Shown: positions 11,004 to 61,624 of the stretch, one piece after another
Numbering within the stretch: position 1 is the first letter of the stretch
How the letters are laid out: every line of letters begins with the position of its first letter
Notes under the pieces: model-generated
The model's database searches: none
Seen by the model: only the letters and a program-made list of their open reading frames with translations
Told to the model about the DNA's origin: nothing
Program-made: the position numbers and the translations under genes
NCBI RefSeq assembly: GCF_018977255.1
Contig: NW_024704742.1
Location: forward strand, 76,882,001 to 76,946,000
Direction: 5' to 3'
Length of the DNA stretch: 64,000 nucleotides
Origin: Callorhinchus milii
Lineage: Eukaryota

Positions 11004-42660
<31,657 letters not shown>

Positions 42661-50600: not shown

Positions 50601-53600
50601 ATTTTATATTGCTAAAATCCTCCCTTGGAATTCACTGTAAGTTATCAAGGCATCCTGAACAGACAGGAACAGACGTCTCGAAGATGTGAAGCTATATCAA
50701 ATGCAAGGATTCTTATTATTTTCAGACCTGCTTTGAGGGTACTCTTAAGATAGAATAGATTCTCATTCCCATGGCAACACTTACCCAAGTATTAAATTCT
50801 GAAGATCGTAAAACCATGAGAAGTTTTAGAACAGCTGCACAATTCTAATAATAATCCTTGCTTTGATATAATTTGATATAGTGCCTTATCACGTCTTCGA
50901 GACAGATCATGCGACAAAATGCTGAGCTGTTGCCCTGCCTGTAGGTCGTAGGTTGACTCAGGTATCCGATTCAAAACAGACAGCTGCTCTTCCTCCCCAA
51001 ACTACTTTAGGATTCAGGCACTATTGAATCCAAACAGTTACTGCTTGTAATTCAAGAAGTTCCTTTGTAATCATTTTGAACACAAAAAAAAGCTTCAATA
51101 ACAAAATAATGTTTTTACCAACACAACTTTTGTTTTGTGTCGTTAATGTTTTCTGTGAATATAATTATTTGCATTGGAAGATCAAACACAGCTGGGGTCC
51201 TTTCCAGATTTGGGAGGCTAATAGGAAAGTCACTTGGTGTATGCAACTTGTTGATAATAGAACTATTTAGTTTTCGTCAATAGACGGTCCTATGAGGAAT
51301 TGGTTCTTAATTGAGGAGGACTCTTGTAATTCCCCCTTATATGGAAATGCAAGGATTATTATTATTATTAAATAACTTGCATTTTTAGACTTTATTTTCC
51401 TGTTGAAACATTGCACTTACCTGTGAAGTAATTATTTTGTTGCAGGCCAATACAGCAGCCTTTTGTGGCAGCAAGATTTCATGATATCCATGAGCTATGT
51501 ACACCAGGGTTTACACTTCATTTGCTCTTGGCACGCAATGTCCAAATTCAAGTAACTGGTCTAAAATGCAATTGATGTTGTATTGGTGTTCTTACGTTTC
51601 AACAGAATGCACTGTACCATTGTTTTTGCTATGAATGTATATCCTAAATAATGATTTTGTTGAATCTAGTATTTTTTTTGTGAAGGGCACATAATAAATT
51701 GGTTGTGTACTATCACTGAGACTCCACTTTTTATTGCAATGCAGTTGCTGTCTGATGTACAATGAGAAGGGTATGGGAAGGAGTTTGGAATGGGTGGAGA
51801 TTCATGGAGCATAAACACATGACAAGGACTAGTTGGGCCGAGTGGCCTATTTCCCTGCTGTAAATCTTTGGGAACATATCAGACATTCCAGAAGTCGCAC
51901 AATTGTAGAATTCAGAGACAGAGTCGCTGACCAACAAGAACAGCAACAACTTGCATTTGTATAGCACCTTCAAGTGGGTACCATCTCAGTACATGCTGAA
52001 AGCAACAGGGTTAATGTCTTTAGTAATTCTATTCATAGAATTGTATGGAGTGGTACAGCACACAAACGGGCCAATCTGCCCAATTAGTTCATGTCTGTGT
52101 TTATACTCCTATTCCCTGCTCCAAAACACTTCTATTCCCTTCTCCCTCATGCATTATCAAGTTTCCTGTTAAATATGTTGATGCTTATTGCTTTAACCAT
52201 AGCTTCCTCTGGTGAGTTCCACATTCGCAGCACTCACTGCCCTCACCGTCCTCTGTCATGTTGGATTGATGTTTACACTGTGGAGTTGTTGGTTTATGGA
52301 GGGTAGAATAGAGTTTTTGTCTTGATCTCAATGAAATGTATTTCAGTGCTTCCACTTTATTCTGATTTACAGCTGAAAGCATATGGTGAAAATATCCATT
52401 GTGGTGAATGAAACAATTTTGATGAAAAATGTTTTGTCTTTCAAAAAAGTTTAAATAAGTTCTTTTTATCGATCATCTTTGTTTACAGTAAATCCTGTGA
52501 AATGCTTTGAGACGTCCTTCTGACGTGAAAGGCGCTAAACCAAGCGTAAGGATTATTCTTTATTATTACTCGTAAATTCCAGCAGATTTGAATTGTTGCA
52601 TAAACATGCTCTGGTTCAATGGAAACATGCAGGATTATAAATCAAATTAAATTTTTTTTCATCAGGAGAAGGAAGGAATAGGAATATAATTTTGTAAGGG
52701 ATTAGAAGAAGACAGCATAAACACAGACATGGTTGGCCCAATGCTCTGCTTCTGTGCTGTAATCTTTCTAGCATTTTGTGGGCTAGAAATTATTAAAAAA
52801 AATATGATCACTTAATCCCTGATTGTTTGTGGGACACTGCTGTGCGCAATTGGCTGTTGCGTTTTACCCATAAAATATACAGTGAATTCACTTTACAGTA
52901 TATTCTGTGAAGCTCTTTGAGACGTCTTGAAGACGTGATCAGGCGCTATGTCAAATGCAAGGATTATTTTTATTTTATAATTCATTTTACATTGTTTTAT
53001 TAGAAAGTTGAATACATAAGCCCAAACAAACATCCCAAGGGACATTTAAGTTATTGTGAATTAGCACACTCTTTATTTATTTTCTGTAACCTAATACAGT
53101 AATATAGAATGTCAATTGTGTAACTATATAACTATAAGGATGTAGTAGACCTGAAGTATACATTTGATGGCTCCACTGACTGAAGATAAAATAACAATTA
53201 TTTCTAATTCTTCTGATGAATATTTAGTTTTAGTTTTACATTTATCTTCAGTGAGGCAGCGTGGGTTTGCATTTAGCTATGTAGAATGCAACTGTTCCAG
53301 TGATGGATATGGCAGTGTTTAAAACCAGTCTAAATAAATAATCAAATTGTAATTTGAGATCAATGCTGGCTGTGAAACAATACACAGCCAGCACCAGATT
53401 CGCAGGGGCAGATTCACGGAGGCAACTATTCTAATACAAACATGACATGGTTATGATTTCTGGTTCCCATTCTGCATACATGCTGATATCAATTCACAAG
53501 ATCAATTCACAATTCACTTCTTCAGGTGAAGAAGGCCCTTCAGCCCATCTGATCTCATCCTTCCAGAATAACCATCCTACCATTGTCCAATCACATCATC

Positions 53601-53828
53601 AAGTTGTTTTTTAAAATGAGTCCATCACATTTAACTATTTTACCTATGGTCCCAAAAGCTGTTATGTAAATAGTGGTGTGCTGACAAGTACTTTGTAATG
53701 CATACATAATCTACTGGAAGATTCAATTGTTCTATTGTCTTCATTTCCAGCATTTCCAAAAGCTGGTTCAGGTACTGCAATATAATTAGTTATTCTAGGT
53801 ACATAATGCACTTATTACTGGAAGTGTC

Positions 53829-53946
53829 TTATTTGCAGACACAGCTCTCAATGCTCATCTTTTTCAGACTTTCAATGGAAACATCTCCAGACTCTGCGAT
53901 GTAGATCATATTGACTGAAGAATATGTTTGTGGGACACAACGGGGT
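53829..53946 (-). CDS. TGF-beta-family ligand coding exon 4 (C-terminal finger 2)
   Basis: cctctcag|a PRCVPQTYSSVNMIYIAESGDVSIESLKKMSIESCVCK-TAA; typical CVP...M.xxxCxC ending. Confidence 0.92.
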
Positions 53947-56900
53947 CTGAGAGGAAACAAATGGCAGAAATTAACACATTAAACAGCAACAGCTTGCATT
54001 CATATTGCACCTTTCATGCAAGCAGCACCTCATAGAACTCAACGGTGGTATGGTTTGCGTTAAGCTAGAAAGAGAGGTGACCGAAGCCACAGTCAAAGAA
54101 GTTTTCAGGTGTGATTTGAAGACTATCAAAGAGGGGGCAAGATAGAAGGATTGAGTCAGGGGGTTCCATAGATTCGGAGCTGAAAGCACGGCTGCTAATA
54201 GTGGAGGGGACAAGGACCGTGCAGAAGATGGGAGACAGCTGAACAAAGGCAGGCGATTTGATGGAGGTGGCAAGAGTCCTGGTCTGGGACTGGATGTAGG
54301 ATAAGAAGGCAAACTGATGCCAAGATTGCAAACAAGTTTGGTTAGTCTGAGGGATGCTCAGGGAAGGTTAGGGGGTCAGAACTCCAAGTAAGAAGAAGTT
54401 GACAGGAGCCGAGGAATATAGCTTCTGTCTTTTTTATGTTCAGCTGCGGAAAGGTGGCATTCATTTAAGTGTTGATGTCAGACAAACACACAGGGAATCT
54501 TGGGTATGCTGCAGGTGACCCGGTGGGTGCGGGAAGAGAAAATGTTTGCGGAGACAAAGTGATGGCAGTTGGTTAAATAGGACTCGAACCAGGAGAGTGT
54601 GGTCCCGTAAGGTGGATGAGGGAGGAGAGGCTATCAAGGAAGATGGCATGTTCCACTGTGTCAACAGCAGCAGAGAGGTCCGGGAGGACAAGGAGGGCAG
54701 AGAGAGCCCTTGTCAGAGAGACAGAGGACGTCATTTATAACCTTGATGAGTGATTCCTGAGTGCTGTGAGCAGGGCAGAAACCAGATGGGAGGGGCTCGA
54801 CAAGGGAGTGGGAGTTAAGGTCTGAGCAATAGGAATAGCGTTTTAGAAGGGAAGAGTAGGTTTGGGATGGGAAGTTTGACACATCAAGGGTAGGTTTTTT
54901 GAGAAGATGGGTGATGACAATGGCACAGAGCTGGAGAAGAGGAACAGATTAACTATATCGGTCAATTGGGGGAGAGGAGCGGTAATTGGATGGCCAACAG
55001 CTGGGTGGGGAGGAGGTCATTTTTTAAAGAAAAGTTGTTTCTCTAAACAATACAAAAAAGACACGCGAAAGCTATGCTTACATTTGTGATATGGTTGTGT
55101 TTTGGCTTTCTGTTTTCCACAAAGGGTTCTGTGCTTCTGTCTTCTCCTGTCCAGATGTTTCGGTGGGGCAGTGACCTCTGGAACAAATGAAAGAGTTCAG
55201 ATTCCATATCTGGTTGAAACAAAATCACATTGCTCATTGTGGAGCTGAGGGCAACACTAGCCCCGTATGTGAGCCTTTTTTCTGTACTGAATTAACTGAT
55301 ATGAGGAGTGCCAGTGAGGGGGGTACAGTGCTATAGTAATATTGAGTTGTTAAAGTTGTAACTACTGTACTTTGTGTAATGCCAACTCCTGTAAAACAGT
55401 GGGCTAGAAATCTATCCACCCGATTTGACTTTCTTCCTCCAATAGTTAAATGTTTTAAAAAATTGTGGAAAAACATAAATATTAAAGTATTTTTTATACC
55501 ATGCTATAAATAACAGCATTTCTTCCTACATGGTTTAATTCTCACCTGCAGATATTAGCATAGTAACCGTGTGGCTCCAGGATCCGATGCTGTAACTCAG
55601 GGCCCTGTAGATTCACATACCACTGGTGCAGGCTGCATTCTCCAGGAGTGGTCCCATGTACTAAGCTCTTCCTCTTGCGCACCCTGGAACACTGCTGGCT
55701 ATCCCTTCTGCTGGGCTGATTCTCGGTCTTGCTGGTTCCGGATAATGGGATTCGATAGGCAATGAGTAACGGTTCATTCGGGGAGCTGGTGTTCAGACAG
55801 TACAGGCTCTGAGTCAGAGCATCATGTATAACCAAGCTGCCACTATCATCAGTGAACTGGAATTGGAATCCTACAATGTCCGCCTCCCACTGCTTCAGGA
55901 TCAGCGATACGTTAAATATGTCGTAGCCGAAGGGAGGAGGTTCATCCAGATTCAAAACTTTCTCATCCAGGGGCTCGCTGATGGTGAGCTTGTTTAGTTC
56001 GGTACCAATGCTGTGTATCGTCACGTTGACTGTCAAGGACTCCCGGTGGAGAGTTCGTCTCCGCACGACCAGCTCAGAGGCTGTCATGGATGCTTTGAGG
56101 TGGGAAATATTGAACCAGAGCCATCCTGGATTGTCAAATTCAGGAACTATTAAATAAACAGACAAATGATTTGGACATACTCATTTTCTGGTGCACTTTT
56201 TAAAGACTATTCCCTTACAATTTTCCCTCCATCACTCTTAAATGCATTGACTTTCTCTAGGTATGTTTTGATGGTCACTGACTGCCTTCTGACCTAACCT
56301 AAGTAGCTACTGACCGTGAACTTTGGCAAACTATTCAATCCCATGTCTACGGCTCAGACTGGGAGATTTAATCTACACCTTCTTGTCTGTATGACCCAGT
56401 GATGCAGTGGTACCTATTTCAATTGTTGCAAAACGGGGAGTTCTTTTACTATAATACTATAATAATCCACCTCATCATGCCATTGAATCGTCTCAAAGCA
56501 CTTCACAAGATTTACTGTAAGGAGCAGTGTCTGCCTTTTTGTAGGCATACTTGGCAGGCAATTTGATGTAGCTGTGTCCCATGAACAGCCATAAAGTGAT
56601 TGACCAATTCTTTATCTGGAAGATTGTTGGTCAGGACACTGAGAGAATCTCCCTTCTCTTTTCGAATCATGCTATGGGAACAAGCAGACACTGTTTAATG
56701 TCTCATGAGGTGAGTTTGCTAATTTTTCAGATTTAGATCAAGTGCTTCACAGAATATATTGAAAAGTATAGTGGCTGTATTTTGTGGGCAAAACGCGGCA
56801 GCCAATTGTGCGCAATAGTGTCCCAGCCGTGGATTAATTGAACAAATTATTATTACTTATTTAGTTATGAACTTAATGTTCTTTAATAACACAAAAAGGC

Positions 56901-59900
56901 AGTATTTGAGCTCAGGGGGACATTGCCCATTCACTCATATGCACCCTACCTTCATGCTAATAGTAATTTGCCAATTTTACAGTGAATGGTGAATGGTTGC
57001 TGCTTATGACTTATCAATTTAAAAGATCTCAGTGCATGATTCTTCTTCGAGAGCTCTAGGAGCATCCTGAATAAAGTGTCTCATGGTTAGATGAATTGTA
57101 AAGTTCCCTATTCTCTGATGCATCAATGTGCATCCCTCCCTCCCCATTCAGACATCTCTAACAAGTGAAATGTTTCCCCTTTTTCAAATCTCAGTACGCA
57201 ATTTGTGCCTTTATGAATTATGTTATTACGTGGAGTCCTGTAGCTCAGTGGTTAGAGCACTCGCTTTGCAAGCGAGAGACCTGAGTTCAATTCCAGGCAG
57301 GGCAAAACCTTGGGCAAGTTTCCTTACTCCACCCCTAATAATAATCCCTCCAAAACCAAAAACAATAATAAATTGGTCATTTTCAATCTACAACTATTTG
57401 TGGGACACTGCTGTGCGCAATTGGCTGCCGCGCTCGCCCACAAATATACAGTCACTTCACTTTACAGTGTGTTCTGTGAAACGTTTTGGGACGTCCTCCC
57501 GACGTGAAAAGTGCTATATCAAATGCAAGGATTATTATTATGTTGAGACAGAGAGGCGACCATTTATGTTATCATGTTTGCTATCATCTATCAGTCTGGG
57601 ATAGATTCAACACATGGTCCTGCTACGTGGCATTGAACTTGAAGCTGTCCTGTAAAGGTCCTCCTACCATGCTGAAGGCAGATGTTCATCAGATAGCTGA
57701 TGAGGAAACTCTGAGTCTGACTTTGCACATCCAGTGCTTGGATTCCATCTAGATTGACTTGCAGAGAGGTAAGCAGATCCTGCTTAAGCTCCACACCTCC
57801 AATTGGATAATAGGAAGCAATGAGTATCTGATGAATGTCCGAGCTGTGGACAGGAAGGCAGTGGCAATGCACTTGTGCATTTCATGCTGAGCTGTGTTGC
57901 CCACCAGGAAGCTTGCAGGGAGTTCCTGGTACCTGCCATCCATTAATTGAGGAAGTAAACTCACGCATGTCGGATGTCAAATGACCAACTAGTAACTATC
58001 CACCTTGGGAGCAAGGTAAGTGGGGTCTCATTGGAGCTGAAAACAAAAACAGAAGTCGCTGGGAACACTCAGCAGGTCAGGCAGCATCTTTGGAGAAAGG
58101 AAAGTGAGTCAATGTTTCGGGTCCATGGCCCTTCGTCAGAACAGGAGCATATTGGGAGGGGGAGGCTTTTAAGGGCTAAAAGAGAGGGGGGAGGTCAGGC
58201 AAGGAAGACAAAGGAGAAAATGGGGTAGAGGCAGGGGATGATGGGTTAAAGAGGTGTTAATGATGTAAACAAAGAGGGTTATTGCAACAAAGTAGGGGAA
58301 TAGAGGTGTTAATACTGCAGAACAAAAAAGGGGTTGGGGGGGGAAAGAACTTGCAACAAAAAAGGTAGATCAGGGAGAGAAAATGTGTGTCTGGGACCCA
58401 GATAATGTGATAATGGTCACAGAAGAGGGGGAGGGGGAAGGTGAGCTGTTATGGTCTGAAATTGATGAAATCAATATTGAGGCCAGAGGGCTGTAAGGTC
58501 CCCAGCAGATAGATGAGGTGCTGTTCCTCGAGCTTGTCCCCTACCTACCTGCCCGTACCCTCCGTTCCTCAGGCTCCGGTCTGCTCCACGTCCCCCGCCC
58601 CAATCGCCCTACCATTGGTGGTCGGGCCTTCAGCCTCTCAGCCCCGAGGCTCTGGAACTCCATCCCCCAGTGCCTTCGCCGCTTCCTCCCTCTCCTCCTT
58701 CAAGGCCGGTCTCAAAACCTTTCTCTTTGACCGTGCCTTCAGCTCCCCTCTCGACTCTCTTCCCCCTTCTCGCTCCCTCCCATCCCTCCCTCACCCTGAC
58801 CATTTCCCCCCTCCTCGCTCCCTCCCCTCACCCTGACCATTTCCCCCCTGCTCGGGTCATGACCCAACTGTGCAGCGCCTTGGGACGTCCTCCTGACGTG
58901 AAAGGCGCTTTATAAATGGAATCTTGTTGTTGTTGTTGTTGTTGTTGCTTGTGCTGTGGCTCATTGGTACAGCGTAGGAGACCGTGTTTGCTCATTGGAG
59001 CTGAACCGGCTCCGAGGTAACATGTTTGGCAATGGAATGTCACGATCAAGTCCACCCTCTGTGGAGGTTTGGATAGTTCCAGTTCCTGAGCCAGGAGGAT
59101 CAGCAGTATTCCAGGGCACTGTTGATGACAGTATGGCCGGCCTGGCTCATTGGCAGGACTGGGAAGGGCAGACCAACTACTGGGGTCAGGGAGTCATCCC
59201 ACTCAGCTCTCGTTAACCCTGCAAACCAAAGCCCAAACAGGAAGAGGGATCCTAGCAATTTCAAGACAGATTTCAGGCAGTTTATAATAATAATAATAAT
59301 CCTTGCATTTGATGTAGCTCCTTATCACGTCACTGAGACGTCTCAAAGTGCTTCACAGAATATATTGAAAAGTGTAGTGACTGTGTATTTTGTGGGCGAA
59401 ACGCGGCAGCCAATTGTGCACAATAGCGTCCCAGCCGTGGATTAATTGAACAAATTATTATTACTTATTTAGTTATTCTTTTGAAAGTGATCCGCCAATC
59501 AATTAACAACTGGATTCTTTCTTATTGCTAGGTAAACATGTGGAGTAAGGGAAGTTGCCTAAGGTTTCGCCCTGCCTGGAAGGATGAGATCATGTGGACC
59601 GAAGGCCTCAGATATAAATTTAATAAACTTAAATATATATTTAACTTTATATTTAATAAATATATTTAGTTTTACTTTAATAAATATATATTTATCTTTA
59701 TATTTAATAAAGATATATTTAACTTTATATTTAATAAAGATATATTTAATTTTATATTTAATAAATATATATTCTAACTTTCTTCATCAAATGTCAATCT
59801 AAGTGATCTGAGATGCTACCCCGTGTGAAGGGGGGCTATATAAATGTAAGTTGTTGCTGTTGTTGTCAAGACCAAGGCTCTCCTGATTGACTCCTGTCAG

Positions 59901-61526
59901 TGCCTTCTCACTTCAGGCATCAACCATAATTGACTTGGTTACTTACTCACTGCTCACTGCTACATGTGGCTCGAACACCTTTGAACCAACCACCATCAAG
60001 TAGATATTACATTTGCCATCCTCCTATCTCCAAAGTGTTGTTTAAATATGCTGGTGCCTCAGTTATCAACTCCCTAGTTTTTTTAAGGACCTTGGGTTCT
60101 GTCCATCTGGATCTGGTGTTTTATTCTCTATGTTGGTCTAATCTAATTTATGTACAGTAGTACATAAATTAACTGAGGTGATTTGATTCCCAACACCATG
60201 TTATTCCTGAAATTTCATTGTCAGTCTCTTTAGTGAAAATTGAGACAGAATATTCATTTAATATTTCAGCCATTTATTTATTATCCCTGTGAGCTTATCC
60301 CCTTCACCCCTTAGAGTCATATCCCTACCTTAGCTATTATTTTATGTCTGTAGATTACCTGACTTGTTTCTAATGTTTCTTGATATTTTCTCCTAGTAAT
60401 TTCTCATTGTCAACAACAACTTGCATTTATATAGTGATCCTCACACAAATCTTGACCCAGAGCGCTTTGAAAACTTAATTGTCTTTGTAACCTCTTTCCT
60501 TTTTGGATTCACTTTTGCTTTCTTCTGTATTATCTATTTTGTAACTTCCACACACTATGCAAGTTTTAAGTGAAACATTGGCCAAGTTTCCTTACTCCAC
60601 ATGACTCTTGTTTACCTAGCAGTAAGTAGGAACCCAGTTGTTAGTCGATTGGCGGATCGCTTTTCTGGGGGTAATAATTCCTTTAAAAAAATTGGTCATT
60701 CAATCCATGACTGTTTGTGGGACACTGCTGTGTGTAATTGGCTGCCACGTTTCGCCCACAAAATATACAGTCAATTCAACAACAACAACTTGCACTTAAA
60801 CAGCGCCCTCCACTCAGAGAGCTTAACAGTGGTGGAACCTGACTCCGACCGGGGGGAGAGGGGAGGTGGCCGTAAGCATGGTCGAACAGGAAAGTCTTCA
60901 GGCGGGACTTGAAAGAGGAGAGAGAGGAGGCAAGGCAGAGGGATTGAGGGAAGAGTGTTCCAGAGTTAATTCACATTACAGTACATTCTGTGACGTGCTT
61001 TGAAATGTCACAAAGGCGTGATAAGGCGCTATATCATAAATGCAAATGCAAGGATCATTATCGAGCCAGTCTTTTACCAGTTACACCAGAATTGCCTTTG
61101 GCTAGAATCAATATGACTATTTTGTCTGCTCTGAAATATAAACAAATCTCGTTGCTATTTTCGGTAGGGAAGCTTAAATGTTTCACTGCTGCTTGGTGGC
61201 TGAAAATATATTTAACAAGTTGAACTTTGAAATGTACCTCTTATGGTCCTGAAGCTTTGGACCAGTGTCCCCTCGATTGTAGCCGATTCCTTGGCCCCAG
61301 AGAAGCTGATTTGCTGGTAGACCAGTTTCATGTAAGGGTGAAGTTTGTTCCGGCGTGGGAATGTCAGAGTGTTGATGTGTAACATCTCTAAGATGGCTTT
61401 ATTACTCTGTTGCTCGCTGCCTTCACTCTCCGCATGACATGGCTTTAGCTCCGGGAAGCAGGTAAAAAACAAGTATCCAGAAAGAAAGCTGAACAGTCCC
61501 AGTGACCCGGCGCTTGCCAACCTCAT
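53829..61526 (-). CDS. Divergent TGF-beta superfamily (BMP/GDF-like) ligand precursor, 4 coding exons, 367 aa
   Basis: Exons 61526-61238, 56146-55546, 55177-55082 and 53946-53829 total 1104 nt with GT-AG introns of phase 1/2/2 and no internal stop. The protein has an N-terminal hydrophobic signal-like segment, prodomain motifs HPYMKLVYQ, WLWFNISHL and EPLLIAY, a basic cluster RVRKRK, and a C-terminal cystine knot C-X28-C-X3-C-X31-C-X31-C-X-C. Confidence 0.92.
53985..55012 (-). mobile_element. Old L2 LINE fragments in intron 3 of the ligand gene
   Basis: SGFCPAHSTQESLIKV and tail remnants. Confidence 0.75.
55082..55177 (-). CDS. TGF-beta-family ligand coding exon 3 (GxC and wrist region)
   Basis: ttgttccag|a GHCPTETSGQEKTEAQNPLWKTESQNTTISQ at|gtaagc; 96 nt, phase 2/2. 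It supplies knot Cys3 and restores the canonical spacing. Confidence 0.85.
55546..56146 (-). CDS. TGF-beta-family ligand coding exon 2 (prodomain, basic cleavage cluster, start of mature domain)
   Basis: ttaatag|(V)PEFDNPGWLWFNISHL...SRVRKRKSLVHGTTPGECSLHQWYVNLQGPELQHRILEPHGYYANIC ag|gtgaga; matches ORF 55542..56165. Confidence 0.93.
57230..57541 (+). mobile_element. tRNA-SINE, full length, young
   Basis: Near-identical to 829-1150; anticodon stem CTCGC-TTTGCAA-GCGAG is intact. Confidence 0.9.
57590..58036 (+). mobile_element. Degraded non-LTR retrotransposon ORF2 C-terminus (CCHC knuckle); resumes at 58991-59260
   Basis: 57836-57895 encodes CPSCGQEGSGNALVHFMLSC (C-X2-C-X10-H-X4-C). It is homologous to 5465-5690; related pieces lie at 6300-6718, 2990-3176, 8760-8990, 24750-25170 and 61800-62030. 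Confidence 0.6.
58037..58535 (-). mobile_element. Penelope-like element 3' end (GIY-YIG C-terminus and pseudo-LTR)
   Basis: The - strand 58535-58449 encodes KLEEQHLIYLLGTLQPSGLNIDFINFRP*, resembling the C-terminal motif of PLE GIY-YIG endonucleases; a hammerhead-like core follows. Confidence 0.8.
58536..58947 (+). mobile_element. L2 LINE 3' end, young
   Basis: Near-identical to 12130-12505; (GTT)n tail. Confidence 0.92.
59283..59580 (-). mobile_element. tRNA-SINE, long subfamily, 5'-truncated
   Basis: Match to the 62075-62447 copy. Confidence 0.8.
59629..59780. repeat. AT-rich minisatellite, about 27-nt unit, about 5 copies
   Basis: Unit aaatatatatttaactttatatttaat repeated with variation. 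Confidence 0.85.
60578..61060 (+). mobile_element. tRNA-SINE, long subfamily, interrupted by an antisense L2 3' fragment (about 60778-60967)
   Basis: The SINE body breaks at cagtcaattc and resumes at aattcacattacag; the insert starts with (aac)n. Confidence 0.75.
61238..61526 (-). CDS. TGF-beta-family ligand coding exon 1 (signal peptide and prodomain N-terminus)
   Basis: MRLASAGSLGLFSFLSGYLFFTCFPELKPCHAES...LHPYMKLVYQQ...GTLVQSFRTIR g|gtacat; 96 codons + 1 nt. Confidence 0.85.
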
Positions 61527-61624
61527 GTTCGAAACTTCTGGTTGTGTATATCTTTTTCTGTGTGTGTGTGTGTGTGTCTGTGTGCGCAGTTGCCCTGTGA
61601 CCAGTCATTGTGTGCGCCTTGAGC
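61527..61624 (-). promoter_or_regulatory. 5'UTR part of the first coding exon of the ligand gene (spliced; contains a uATG and (CA)n)
   Basis: Strong acceptor tttctcttgttttgatag| at 61625/61624 on -. There is an in-frame TGA upstream of the main ATG, an upstream ATG at 61608, and a (CA)n tract at about 61559-61584. Confidence 0.55.

Follow-up and report, generated by a model that had tools for sequence, protein, structure and literature searches.

The window analysed here, a 64,000-nucleotide stretch of the Callorhinchus milii genome (contig NW_024704742.1, positions 76,882,001 to 76,946,000), carries on its minus strand a four-exon gene for a TGF-beta-family protein, which by sequence comparison is a member of a single-copy orthologous family dating to the gnathostome ancestor. 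A new finding is that conservation in this family is inverted, the prodomain being better kept than the growth-factor domain. Judged from the sequences and from structural models, the chances are about even that the protein is a secreted, non-canonical extracellular modulator working mainly through its prodomain. The original prediction, made from the letters of the window alone, was concerned with the cysteines of the growth-factor domain and missed this main signal: no part of the protein is conserved as well as the prodomain, and it alone remains in acanthomorph fishes.

Mean pairwise identity among 31 full-length species, hand-picked from 96 long forms, was 64.9% in the prodomain core (C. 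milii residues 42–228), compared with 53.6% in finger 1 and 50.3% in finger 2 of the growth-factor domain, 20.9% in the linker and 16.3% in the wrist segment. The C. milii core shares 70–75% identity with those of elasmobranchs. Its sole cysteine, Cys213, is invariant in the 17 vertebrate members of alignment A1 and is kept at 90% or more in alignments A3 and A5, both of which include amphioxus.

In acanthomorph teleosts, the family protein consists of the prodomain only, being about 233 aa long with a conserved stop. In 59 family proteins, fewer than 25 residues follow the EPLLV motif, and in 53 of these the number is exactly 9. None of the prodomain-only proteins carries the Pfam TGF_beta domain (PF00019), and that of sea bass (P0102) has no Pfam match of any kind. 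These forms constitute one clade inside the euteleosts (10 of 10 rows; support of 100 in the Shimodaira–Hasegawa-like approximate likelihood ratio test, SH-aLRT), and Polymixia, with the short form, is an acanthomorph and Osmerus, with the full form, a stomiatian. Among 58 prodomain-only proteins, identity is 86.7% in the alpha1/lasso segment (C. milii residues 42–75) and 83.2% in the arm; comparison of short with full-length forms gives 62.8 and 60.9%, respectively. Exactly one cysteine after residue 30, the invariant one of the SLYCL motif, is present in 44 of the 58. Thirteen family models of odd length (seven from acanthomorphs) were inspected for a CxGxC tail, and all lacked it; among the longer acanthomorph models in which the motif could be located, most are extended at the N-terminus.

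Shortened products were also seen among the models of full-gene species. In the predicted isoform X3 of Rhinoraja longicauda (P0015, 291 aa), the prodomain end (...PLLITYR) is joined to the equivalent of C. milii exon 3 (GHC...), skipping the linker and finger 1, and short isoform models exist in Labeo, gar, Caretta and Lepidochelys. In species with the full gene, prodomain-rich products may already arise by alternative splicing.

The family is large. A word-indexed search with the open reading frame (ORF) of exon 2 returned 24 proteins, and a HMMER search with exon 2 against 1.84 billion representatives, which are clusters hiding members of more than 50% identity, gave 33 matches at E ≤1e-3. 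Thirty of these lie at E ≤1e-10; the remaining three comprise one protein from amphioxus and two repeat proteins, one of them bacterial and the other an unnamed ENA entry. A profile built from 11 family members and the amphioxus protein gave 162 matches, and of the 120 listed, 117 belong to the vertebrate family (including one unnamed Logan entry) and three to amphioxus. The word 'orphan' in the original prediction is therefore wrong if it meant lineage-restricted, because more than 150 orthologues exist. Full-length members (about 355–390 aa, with PF00019) occur in sharks, rays and chimaera, in the coelacanth and in many turtles, and among ray-finned fishes in bichirs, sturgeons, paddlefish, gar, elopomorphs, osteoglossomorphs, otocephalans, salmonids, pikes and smelt. 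No mammalian, avian, crocodilian, squamate, amphibian, lungfish or cyclostome member was present among the 120 of 162 matches listed, and the suggestion that the gene was possibly lost in mammals agrees with this.

The two repeat proteins, P0053 (Schleiferilactobacillus harbinensis, 1044 aa) and P0052 (an unnamed ENA entry of 1326 aa), each align more than once with residues 36–109 of translated exon 2 (E 1e-8 and 4e-8). These matches were taken as a compositional or repeat artefact, and both proteins were rejected as spurious.

A tree of 44 hand-picked rows, built with IQ-TREE in 'quick' mode and rooted on amphioxus, follows the gnathostome species tree and bears out the description of the gene as ancient. 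SH-aLRT support was 95 for the chondrichthyans, 99 for C. milii as the sister of elasmobranchs, 85 for coelacanth plus turtles and 99 for the actinopterygians, which branch in the expected order; the terminal branch of C. milii is long (0.31). The gene is already present in public annotation but is unnamed, as had been supposed. Automatic names given to family members are contradictory (BMP2, BMP2-A/B, BMP4, BMP7 or BMP7-like, GDF5, GDF6-A/B, GDF3-like, DVR-1 homolog, dbl-1, TGF-beta-1-like and uncharacterized), and a literature search by the LOC identifiers of the family and by descriptive phrases found no study of the gene.

The amphioxus protein is the sole non-family eukaryote among the 33 exon 2 matches (E 2e-5). 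When 70 target proteins were scored with a hidden Markov model (HMM) of the vertebrate prodomains only, five amphioxus sequences obtained 35.9–43.0 bits and 63 precursors of the 60A/BMP6/BMP8a class at most 14.5, with the bacterial repeat protein at 27.7 bits; an HMM of the mature domain does not discriminate amphioxus from that class in the same set. Unlike the vertebrate family, the amphioxus proteins P0054, P0098 and P0117 have the CC pair (seven cysteines), an RTRR or RTKR cleavage site, a canonical wrist and a Pfam TGFb_propeptide match. The mature domain is about 50% identical to those of insect 60A and coelacanth BMP6 and 47% identical to that of C. milii BMP8a. By sequence, the vertebrate family is BMP-like in its mature domain, and in its prodomain its nearest outside relative is this amphioxus BMP5-8-like gene. 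The amphioxus gene is probably not the classical BMP5-8 orthologue of amphioxus and is a possible candidate for the pro-orthologue of the vertebrate family. These comparisons suggest that the family descended from a BMP5-8-like lineage and that its growth-factor domain decayed later. The three Branchiostoma proteins have been auto-named BMP7, BMP8A-like and dpp-like.

In C. milii, joining the four minus-strand exons by their coordinates gives a coding sequence of 1104 nt, comprising 367 codons and a single terminal stop, and the three introns (5091, 368 and 1135 nt) all begin with GT and end with AG. Re-reading of the exons therefore upholds the intact four-exon gene and uninterrupted 367-aa precursor of the original prediction. 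The features of the gene, all on the minus strand, are as follows.

61238..61526, minus strand: exon 1, 289 nt; start codon ATG at 61526-61524, donor GT at 61237-61236; the N-terminus aligns with shark orthologues; encodes the hydrophobic N-terminus (residues 9–23) and then the start of the prodomain, with the alpha1/lasso motif NKAILEMLHI...PYM..VY from residue 42 (61403 downwards)
55546..56146, minus strand: exon 2, 601 nt; the remaining prodomain (arm domain to residue 228 at 55752), the linker and finger 1 as far as Cys296-Arg
55797..55799, minus strand: codon of Cys213 (motif SLYCL)
55668..55685, minus strand: polybasic stretch RVRKRK, residues 251–256, in the linker
55546..55637, minus strand: finger 1 of the mature domain, from Cys267 (TGC at 55637-55635) to the split codon of Arg297
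55082..55177, minus strand: exon 3, 96 nt; completes CRGHC and continues with a polar 'wrist' where canonical ligands have a long helix
53829..53946, minus strand: exon 4, 118 nt including TAA at 53831-53829; Arg331 (CGT at 53942-53940), Cys332, finger 2 and the C-terminal CVCK
53600..53828, minus strand: 3' untranslated region, at least to 53600; an X6 contig continues about 190 nt past 53600

Exons 3 and 4 are missing from the 60-aa ORF track, as had been noticed, because they sit in stop-to-stop ORFs of only 48 and 49 aa. The public model P0001 ('uncharacterized LOC103177695 [Callorhinchus milii]', 320 aa) uses the same three junctions and equals residues 48–367 except at residue 71, which is Gln in the window and Leu in P0001; this is an allele or assembly difference. 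Since P0001 begins at Met48, it is devoid of the signal-like N-terminus. The most hydrophobic 15-mer of the 367-aa protein is formed by residues 9–23 (mean Kyte–Doolittle value 1.63), and because this N-terminus also aligns with those of the shark orthologues, the 367-aa model is better than the 320-aa one. The protein contains five N-glycosylation sequons, four in the prodomain and one (NTT, residue 323) in the wrist.

Contigs from X3 (study P1) and from X5 and X6 (study P2) join 53946 to 55082 and 55177 to 55546; consecutive contig coordinates lie on both pairs of exon edges, and introns 2 and 3 are therefore absent from these contigs. X9 contigs are colinear with the genome through both introns, as expected of genomic DNA. 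The kinds of sequencing run are not on record (none is recorded as RNA), and the transcript reading rests on which junctions the contigs bridge; spliced mRNA in two independent studies is the simplest reading of the intron-less contigs. The junctions of exons 2–3 and 3–4 are thereby supported, and support for the exon 1–2 junction is partial, consisting of an X6 contig (record 18) that starts exactly at 61238, the exon 1 donor edge, and of the public model P0001.

Intron 1 contains very high-copy repeats at 57136-57679, 57952-58223, 58496-59583 and 60400-60943, at which the summed contig word depth reaches 10^4 to 10^6, compared with about 10 on the exons, with thousands of repeat-to-repeat joints. 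A (CA)n microsatellite lies at 61542-61590, 16 nt upstream of the start codon.

According to the structural models, the prodomain has an arm-domain fold. The AlphaFold model of P0001, computed from a 58-row alignment, has a mean predicted local distance difference test (pLDDT) value of 73.3; block means in the arm domain (P0001 residues 41–180) are 82–91, with one block at 74, and a model of a shark orthologue agrees for the prodomain. Foldseek searches with these models matched pro-TGF-beta1 (E 4.7e-14), pro-activin A (2.1e-11) and pro-myostatin (4.9e-11), as well as the BMP9 prodomain at a template modelling score (TMt) of 0.51–0.54. The prodomains of TGF-beta1 (the latency-associated peptide, LAP), myostatin, activin A and BMP9/10 thus share the arm fold with the C. 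milii family (E 4.7e-14 to 1.5e-5) and likewise have an N-terminal helix-loop-helix before the arm, and the C. milii family has a conserved unpaired cysteine near the arm end; LAP uses cysteines for dimerisation and tethering. We know of no solved or named TGF-beta-family member that has lost its growth factor and still makes the prodomain as a gene product by itself, and a literature search for such a product found nothing.

The assignment of the C-terminal part to the TGF-beta family is far beyond chance. On spliced P0001, Pfam TGF_beta scored 66.5 bits (E 3.9e-18; cut-off 27) over profile positions 1–104 of 104, and on the separate exons it matched the end of exon 2 (profile 1–31) and exon 4 (profile 68–104, 32.6 bits, E 1.4e-7). 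Of the two Pfam profiles named for a check in the original prediction, TGF_beta was thus matched and TGFb_propeptide (PF00688) was not. The mature part has cysteines at residues 267, 296, 300, 332, 364 and 366, giving the spacing 28/3/31/31/1, and Arg331 occupies the position of the interchain cysteine; the predicted six-Cys knot without that residue is accordingly real, and the mature string equals the C-terminus of P0001. The six knot cysteines and the glycine of CxGxC (CRGHC in C. milii) are invariant in 17 of 17 aligned sequences. No cysteine was found at the interchain position in any of the 31 full-length relatives, which have 13 different residues there. The mature part contains exactly six cysteines in 28 of the 31 species, the exceptions being Pristiophorus and Polypterus with eight and Scyliorhinus with seven. 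In C. milii, HRILEP stands in place of the HW(I/V)LEP of at least 90% of the relatives, so that a near-invariant Trp is replaced by Arg. A sequon is carried by the wrist segment in 25 of the 31 species. In the P0001 model, both fingers are beta-hairpins (block means 70–87), and the linker and wrist are modelled without a helix at pLDDT below 50; the shark model likewise shows no wrist helix at pLDDT below 50, a low confidence that limits the reading of the missing helix.

The cleavage site is poorly kept. The C. milii linker contains no match to R-X-X-R or R-X-K/R-R, only RVRKRK and SRR. Among the 31 linkers, R-X-[KR]-R occurs in six and R-X-X-R in 24, the species lacking it being C. milii, three turtles, Narcine, Anguilla and Osmerus. 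An extra cysteine just past the signal-like region is found in many chondrichthyan and turtle proteins (Cys30 in C. milii, KPCHAES), and the linker often contains a further one (Cys249); teleosts conserve neither. In its position, Cys30 resembles the LAP cysteine through which TGF-beta1 is tethered to LTBP or GARP.

The relation to named ligands (GDF9, BMP15, Lefty, Nodal, GDF1/3, Bmp16 and BMP2/4) was judged by profile scores against PDB sequences and by published descriptions, not by direct sequence comparison. The family profile scored BMP2 at 80 bits, BMP6 at 77, BMP7 at 71.5, GDF5 at 64, activin A at 62, BMP3 at 58 and TGF-beta2/3 at 57, all of these matches aligning over the mature domain only. 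Foldseek placed the model on mature BMP2, BMP6 and activin A with TMt of 0.62–0.70 (BMP2 0.66), and the ESM Atlas returned generic TGF-beta clusters only, the second-nearest being 'Protein DVR-1 homolog'. The BMP2/4/16 and BMP5-8 (60A/Gbb) classes thus provide the best mature-domain matches among solved structures (TMt of about 0.65 on BMP2 and BMP6), the cysteine spacing is BMP2-like, and the intron after the ...VQSFR motif lies at what we take to be the position of the conserved BMP prodomain intron. Unlike these classes, however, the C. milii family has no interchain cysteine, a variable wrist, two extra introns within the mature domain, a poor cleavage site and a prodomain that is more conserved than the ligand; C. 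milii also holds a separate canonical BMP8a. GDF9, BMP15 and GDF3 resemble the family in having a six-Cys knot and no covalent dimer through the fourth cysteine, but no automatic family name points to GDF9 or BMP15, and acanthomorph members are devoid of the ligand domain. Lefty likewise has no interchain cysteine; it also has no long wrist helix, as in the low-confidence wrist models of the C. milii family, and human Lefty is encoded by a four-exon gene for about 366 aa; the C. milii protein differs in having no C-terminal extension after CxC and in a family profile closest to BMPs.

Published descriptions set the gene apart from GSDF, Lefty, Nodal and Bmp16, as had been expected by eye for the first three. 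According to the part of Kuraku 2024 that was available, Holocephali possess Nodal1, Nodal2, LeftyA and LeftyB, with LeftyB inside an Sde2 intron; orthology to Lefty or Nodal was rejected because, on that description, these genes lie at other loci. No Sde2 domain was found in the 150 longest of 323 ORFs (at least 55 aa) scanned outside the gene within the window. GSDF was rejected on the description in the accessible portion of PMC12989411, in which its knot has no Gly between Cys2 and Cys3 and its locus is flanked by nup54, aff1, klhl8, ptpn13 and sdad1, whereas CRGHC of C. milii has the invariant Gly and the neighbour is a TTC39-family gene. According to the accessible text of Feiner 2019, Bmp16 retains seven cysteines, apart from one exception in an anole, and was found neither in archelosaurs nor in the thornback ray or the elephant fish. 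With six cysteines and members in turtles, rays and C. milii, the present family differs from that description, and identity with Bmp16 was rejected on these grounds.

The reading favoured here, a prodomain-acting extracellular modulator, is drawn from the fact that the strongest constraint lies on the prodomain and persists where the growth factor in cis is gone. The hydrophobic signal-like N-terminus suggests that the protein would be secreted. Because the interchain cysteine is absent, the usual covalent dimer would be impossible, and the protein would not be a canonical disulfide-linked receptor agonist; the variable wrist would probably offer no usual type I receptor epitope, and furin-type cleavage of the C. 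milii protein appears doubtful in view of the missing R-X-X-R. The constrained region includes the alpha1/lasso/alpha2 elements, by which prodomains grip the growth factor in solved pro-complexes. The prodomain may accordingly act by binding growth-factor domains, namely the weakly cleaved one of the same protein and probably those of other proteins in trans, or by tethering to the matrix, with Cys213 available for a covalent dimer or tether, and the six-Cys domain would be an accessory part that acanthomorph fishes have dispensed with. A narrower version, which we hold only tentatively, is that the prodomain is itself the functional product and serves as a naturally secreted 'latency peptide', trapping or tethering further ligands of the BMP class in trans. 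The six-Cys domain still carried in most jawed fishes and turtles would then be degenerate, and acanthomorphs would have been reduced to the prodomain and have stayed so for more than 100 million years.

Several points weigh against such a role. The six knot cysteines, the glycine of CxGxC and much of both fingers are kept in 31 of 31 species over about 450 million years, so that the growth-factor domain, where it occurs, is under selection and may have signalling or antagonist activity independently of the prodomain, and the minimal R-X-X-R is retained in 24 of these species. Pfam TGFb_propeptide was undetected in the C. milii, shark and sea-bass proteins. The names alpha1, lasso and alpha2 were assigned from position, from helices in the models (residues 43–50 and 66–78 in the shark, 17–30 in P0001) and from motifs of BMP prodomains, and pLDDT is low at the start of alpha1. 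Evidence for the prodomain-only forms comes from protein models, not from genomic DNA, and the clustered representatives searched may hide members from the groups in which none was listed.

A conventional ligand of the GDF9/BMP15 type, cleaved and acting on type I and type II receptors as a non-covalent homo- or heterodimer, a state that the original prediction envisaged alongside a monomer, appears unlikely. The six-Cys knot with its BMP2-like spacing and conserved CxGxC glycine, fingers that are about 50% identical over the 31 species and confidently modelled as two beta-fingers, and the frequency of R-X-X-R (24/31) are all in its favour, and known ligands without the interchain cysteine do signal. 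It accords less well with a wrist of only 16% identity for which the low-confidence model (pLDDT below 50) shows no helix, with the absence of R-X-X-R and the Arg for near-invariant Trp in C. milii, and with a prodomain that outconserves the ligand domain and remains in 58 acanthomorph proteins from which that domain is absent. The same inversion bears on a Lefty-like antagonist, in which a monomeric six-Cys domain without the wrist helix blocks ligands or co-receptors and the prodomain is a chaperone only: a chaperone explains neither the higher conservation of the prodomain nor the prodomain-only acanthomorph proteins. The missing interchain cysteine and, in the models, the missing long helix are shared with Lefty, and the motif W(I/V)LEP.GF resembles that of Lefty, but the family profile scores BMP2 and BMP6 at the top among solved ligands, and we consider this alternative rather improbable. 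The holocephalan LeftyA and LeftyB are elsewhere, in the available part of Kuraku 2024, so that the gene is not a Lefty orthologue.

Whether the gene could be a fast-evolving orthologue of a named ligand (Bmp16, GDF9, BMP15, GDF1/3/Vg1 or GSDF) was also considered, given the automatic names BMP2/4, 'GDF3-like' (Caretta) and 'DVR-1 homolog' (Oncorhynchus keta) and the second-nearest Atlas cluster of the latter name. The exhaustive exon 2 search gave no named ligand at E ≤1e-3, and Bmp16 and GSDF differ in cysteine or glycine pattern, taxa or locus in the accessible portions of Feiner 2019 and PMC12989411. In the part of Zheng 2018 that was available, bmp15, gdf9 and gdf3 of tilapia appear as ligand genes with expression in oocytes, whereas the acanthomorph members of the present family have no growth-factor domain. 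We regard this explanation as highly improbable. Least credible of all is that the C. milii gene is functionless and decaying under relaxed selection. Its long end branch (0.31) and the loss of the near-invariant Trp and of R-X-X-R are what such decay might leave, but the 367-codon frame is intact over four exons with canonical splice sites, intron-less contigs come from two studies, the six knot cysteines and the hallmarks of the prodomain are kept, and the prodomain core remains 70–75% identical to those of elasmobranchs.

If these conclusions hold, the vertebrate TGF-beta family gains a further ancient member, one that would have remained without a name because it is lacking in mammals, birds and the customary tetrapod models and because annotation pipelines label it by the best-scoring BMP or GDF. 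The orthologous family would also represent a natural experiment on prodomain roles: ligands are ordinarily conserved and prodomains loose, here the opposite is seen, and one large fish clade is prodomain-only. Extracellular functions of the prodomain in its own right, such as latency, ligand trapping and matrix targeting, would be testable in zebrafish, which has the full-length form, and in medaka, which has the prodomain-only form.

The neighbouring gene is arranged tail-to-tail with the TGF-beta-family gene.

17745..38804, plus strand: TTC39-family gene; at least three exons match Pfam Iml2-TPR_39 (17745-18080, 26297-26521 and 38457-38804)

Its introns contain reverse-transcriptase and endonuclease ORFs of the long interspersed nuclear element (LINE) type at 28690-31057 (minus strand) and 33131-33773 (plus strand), and jumps in GC content and GC skew at 28–32 kb coincide with these LINE-type ORFs.

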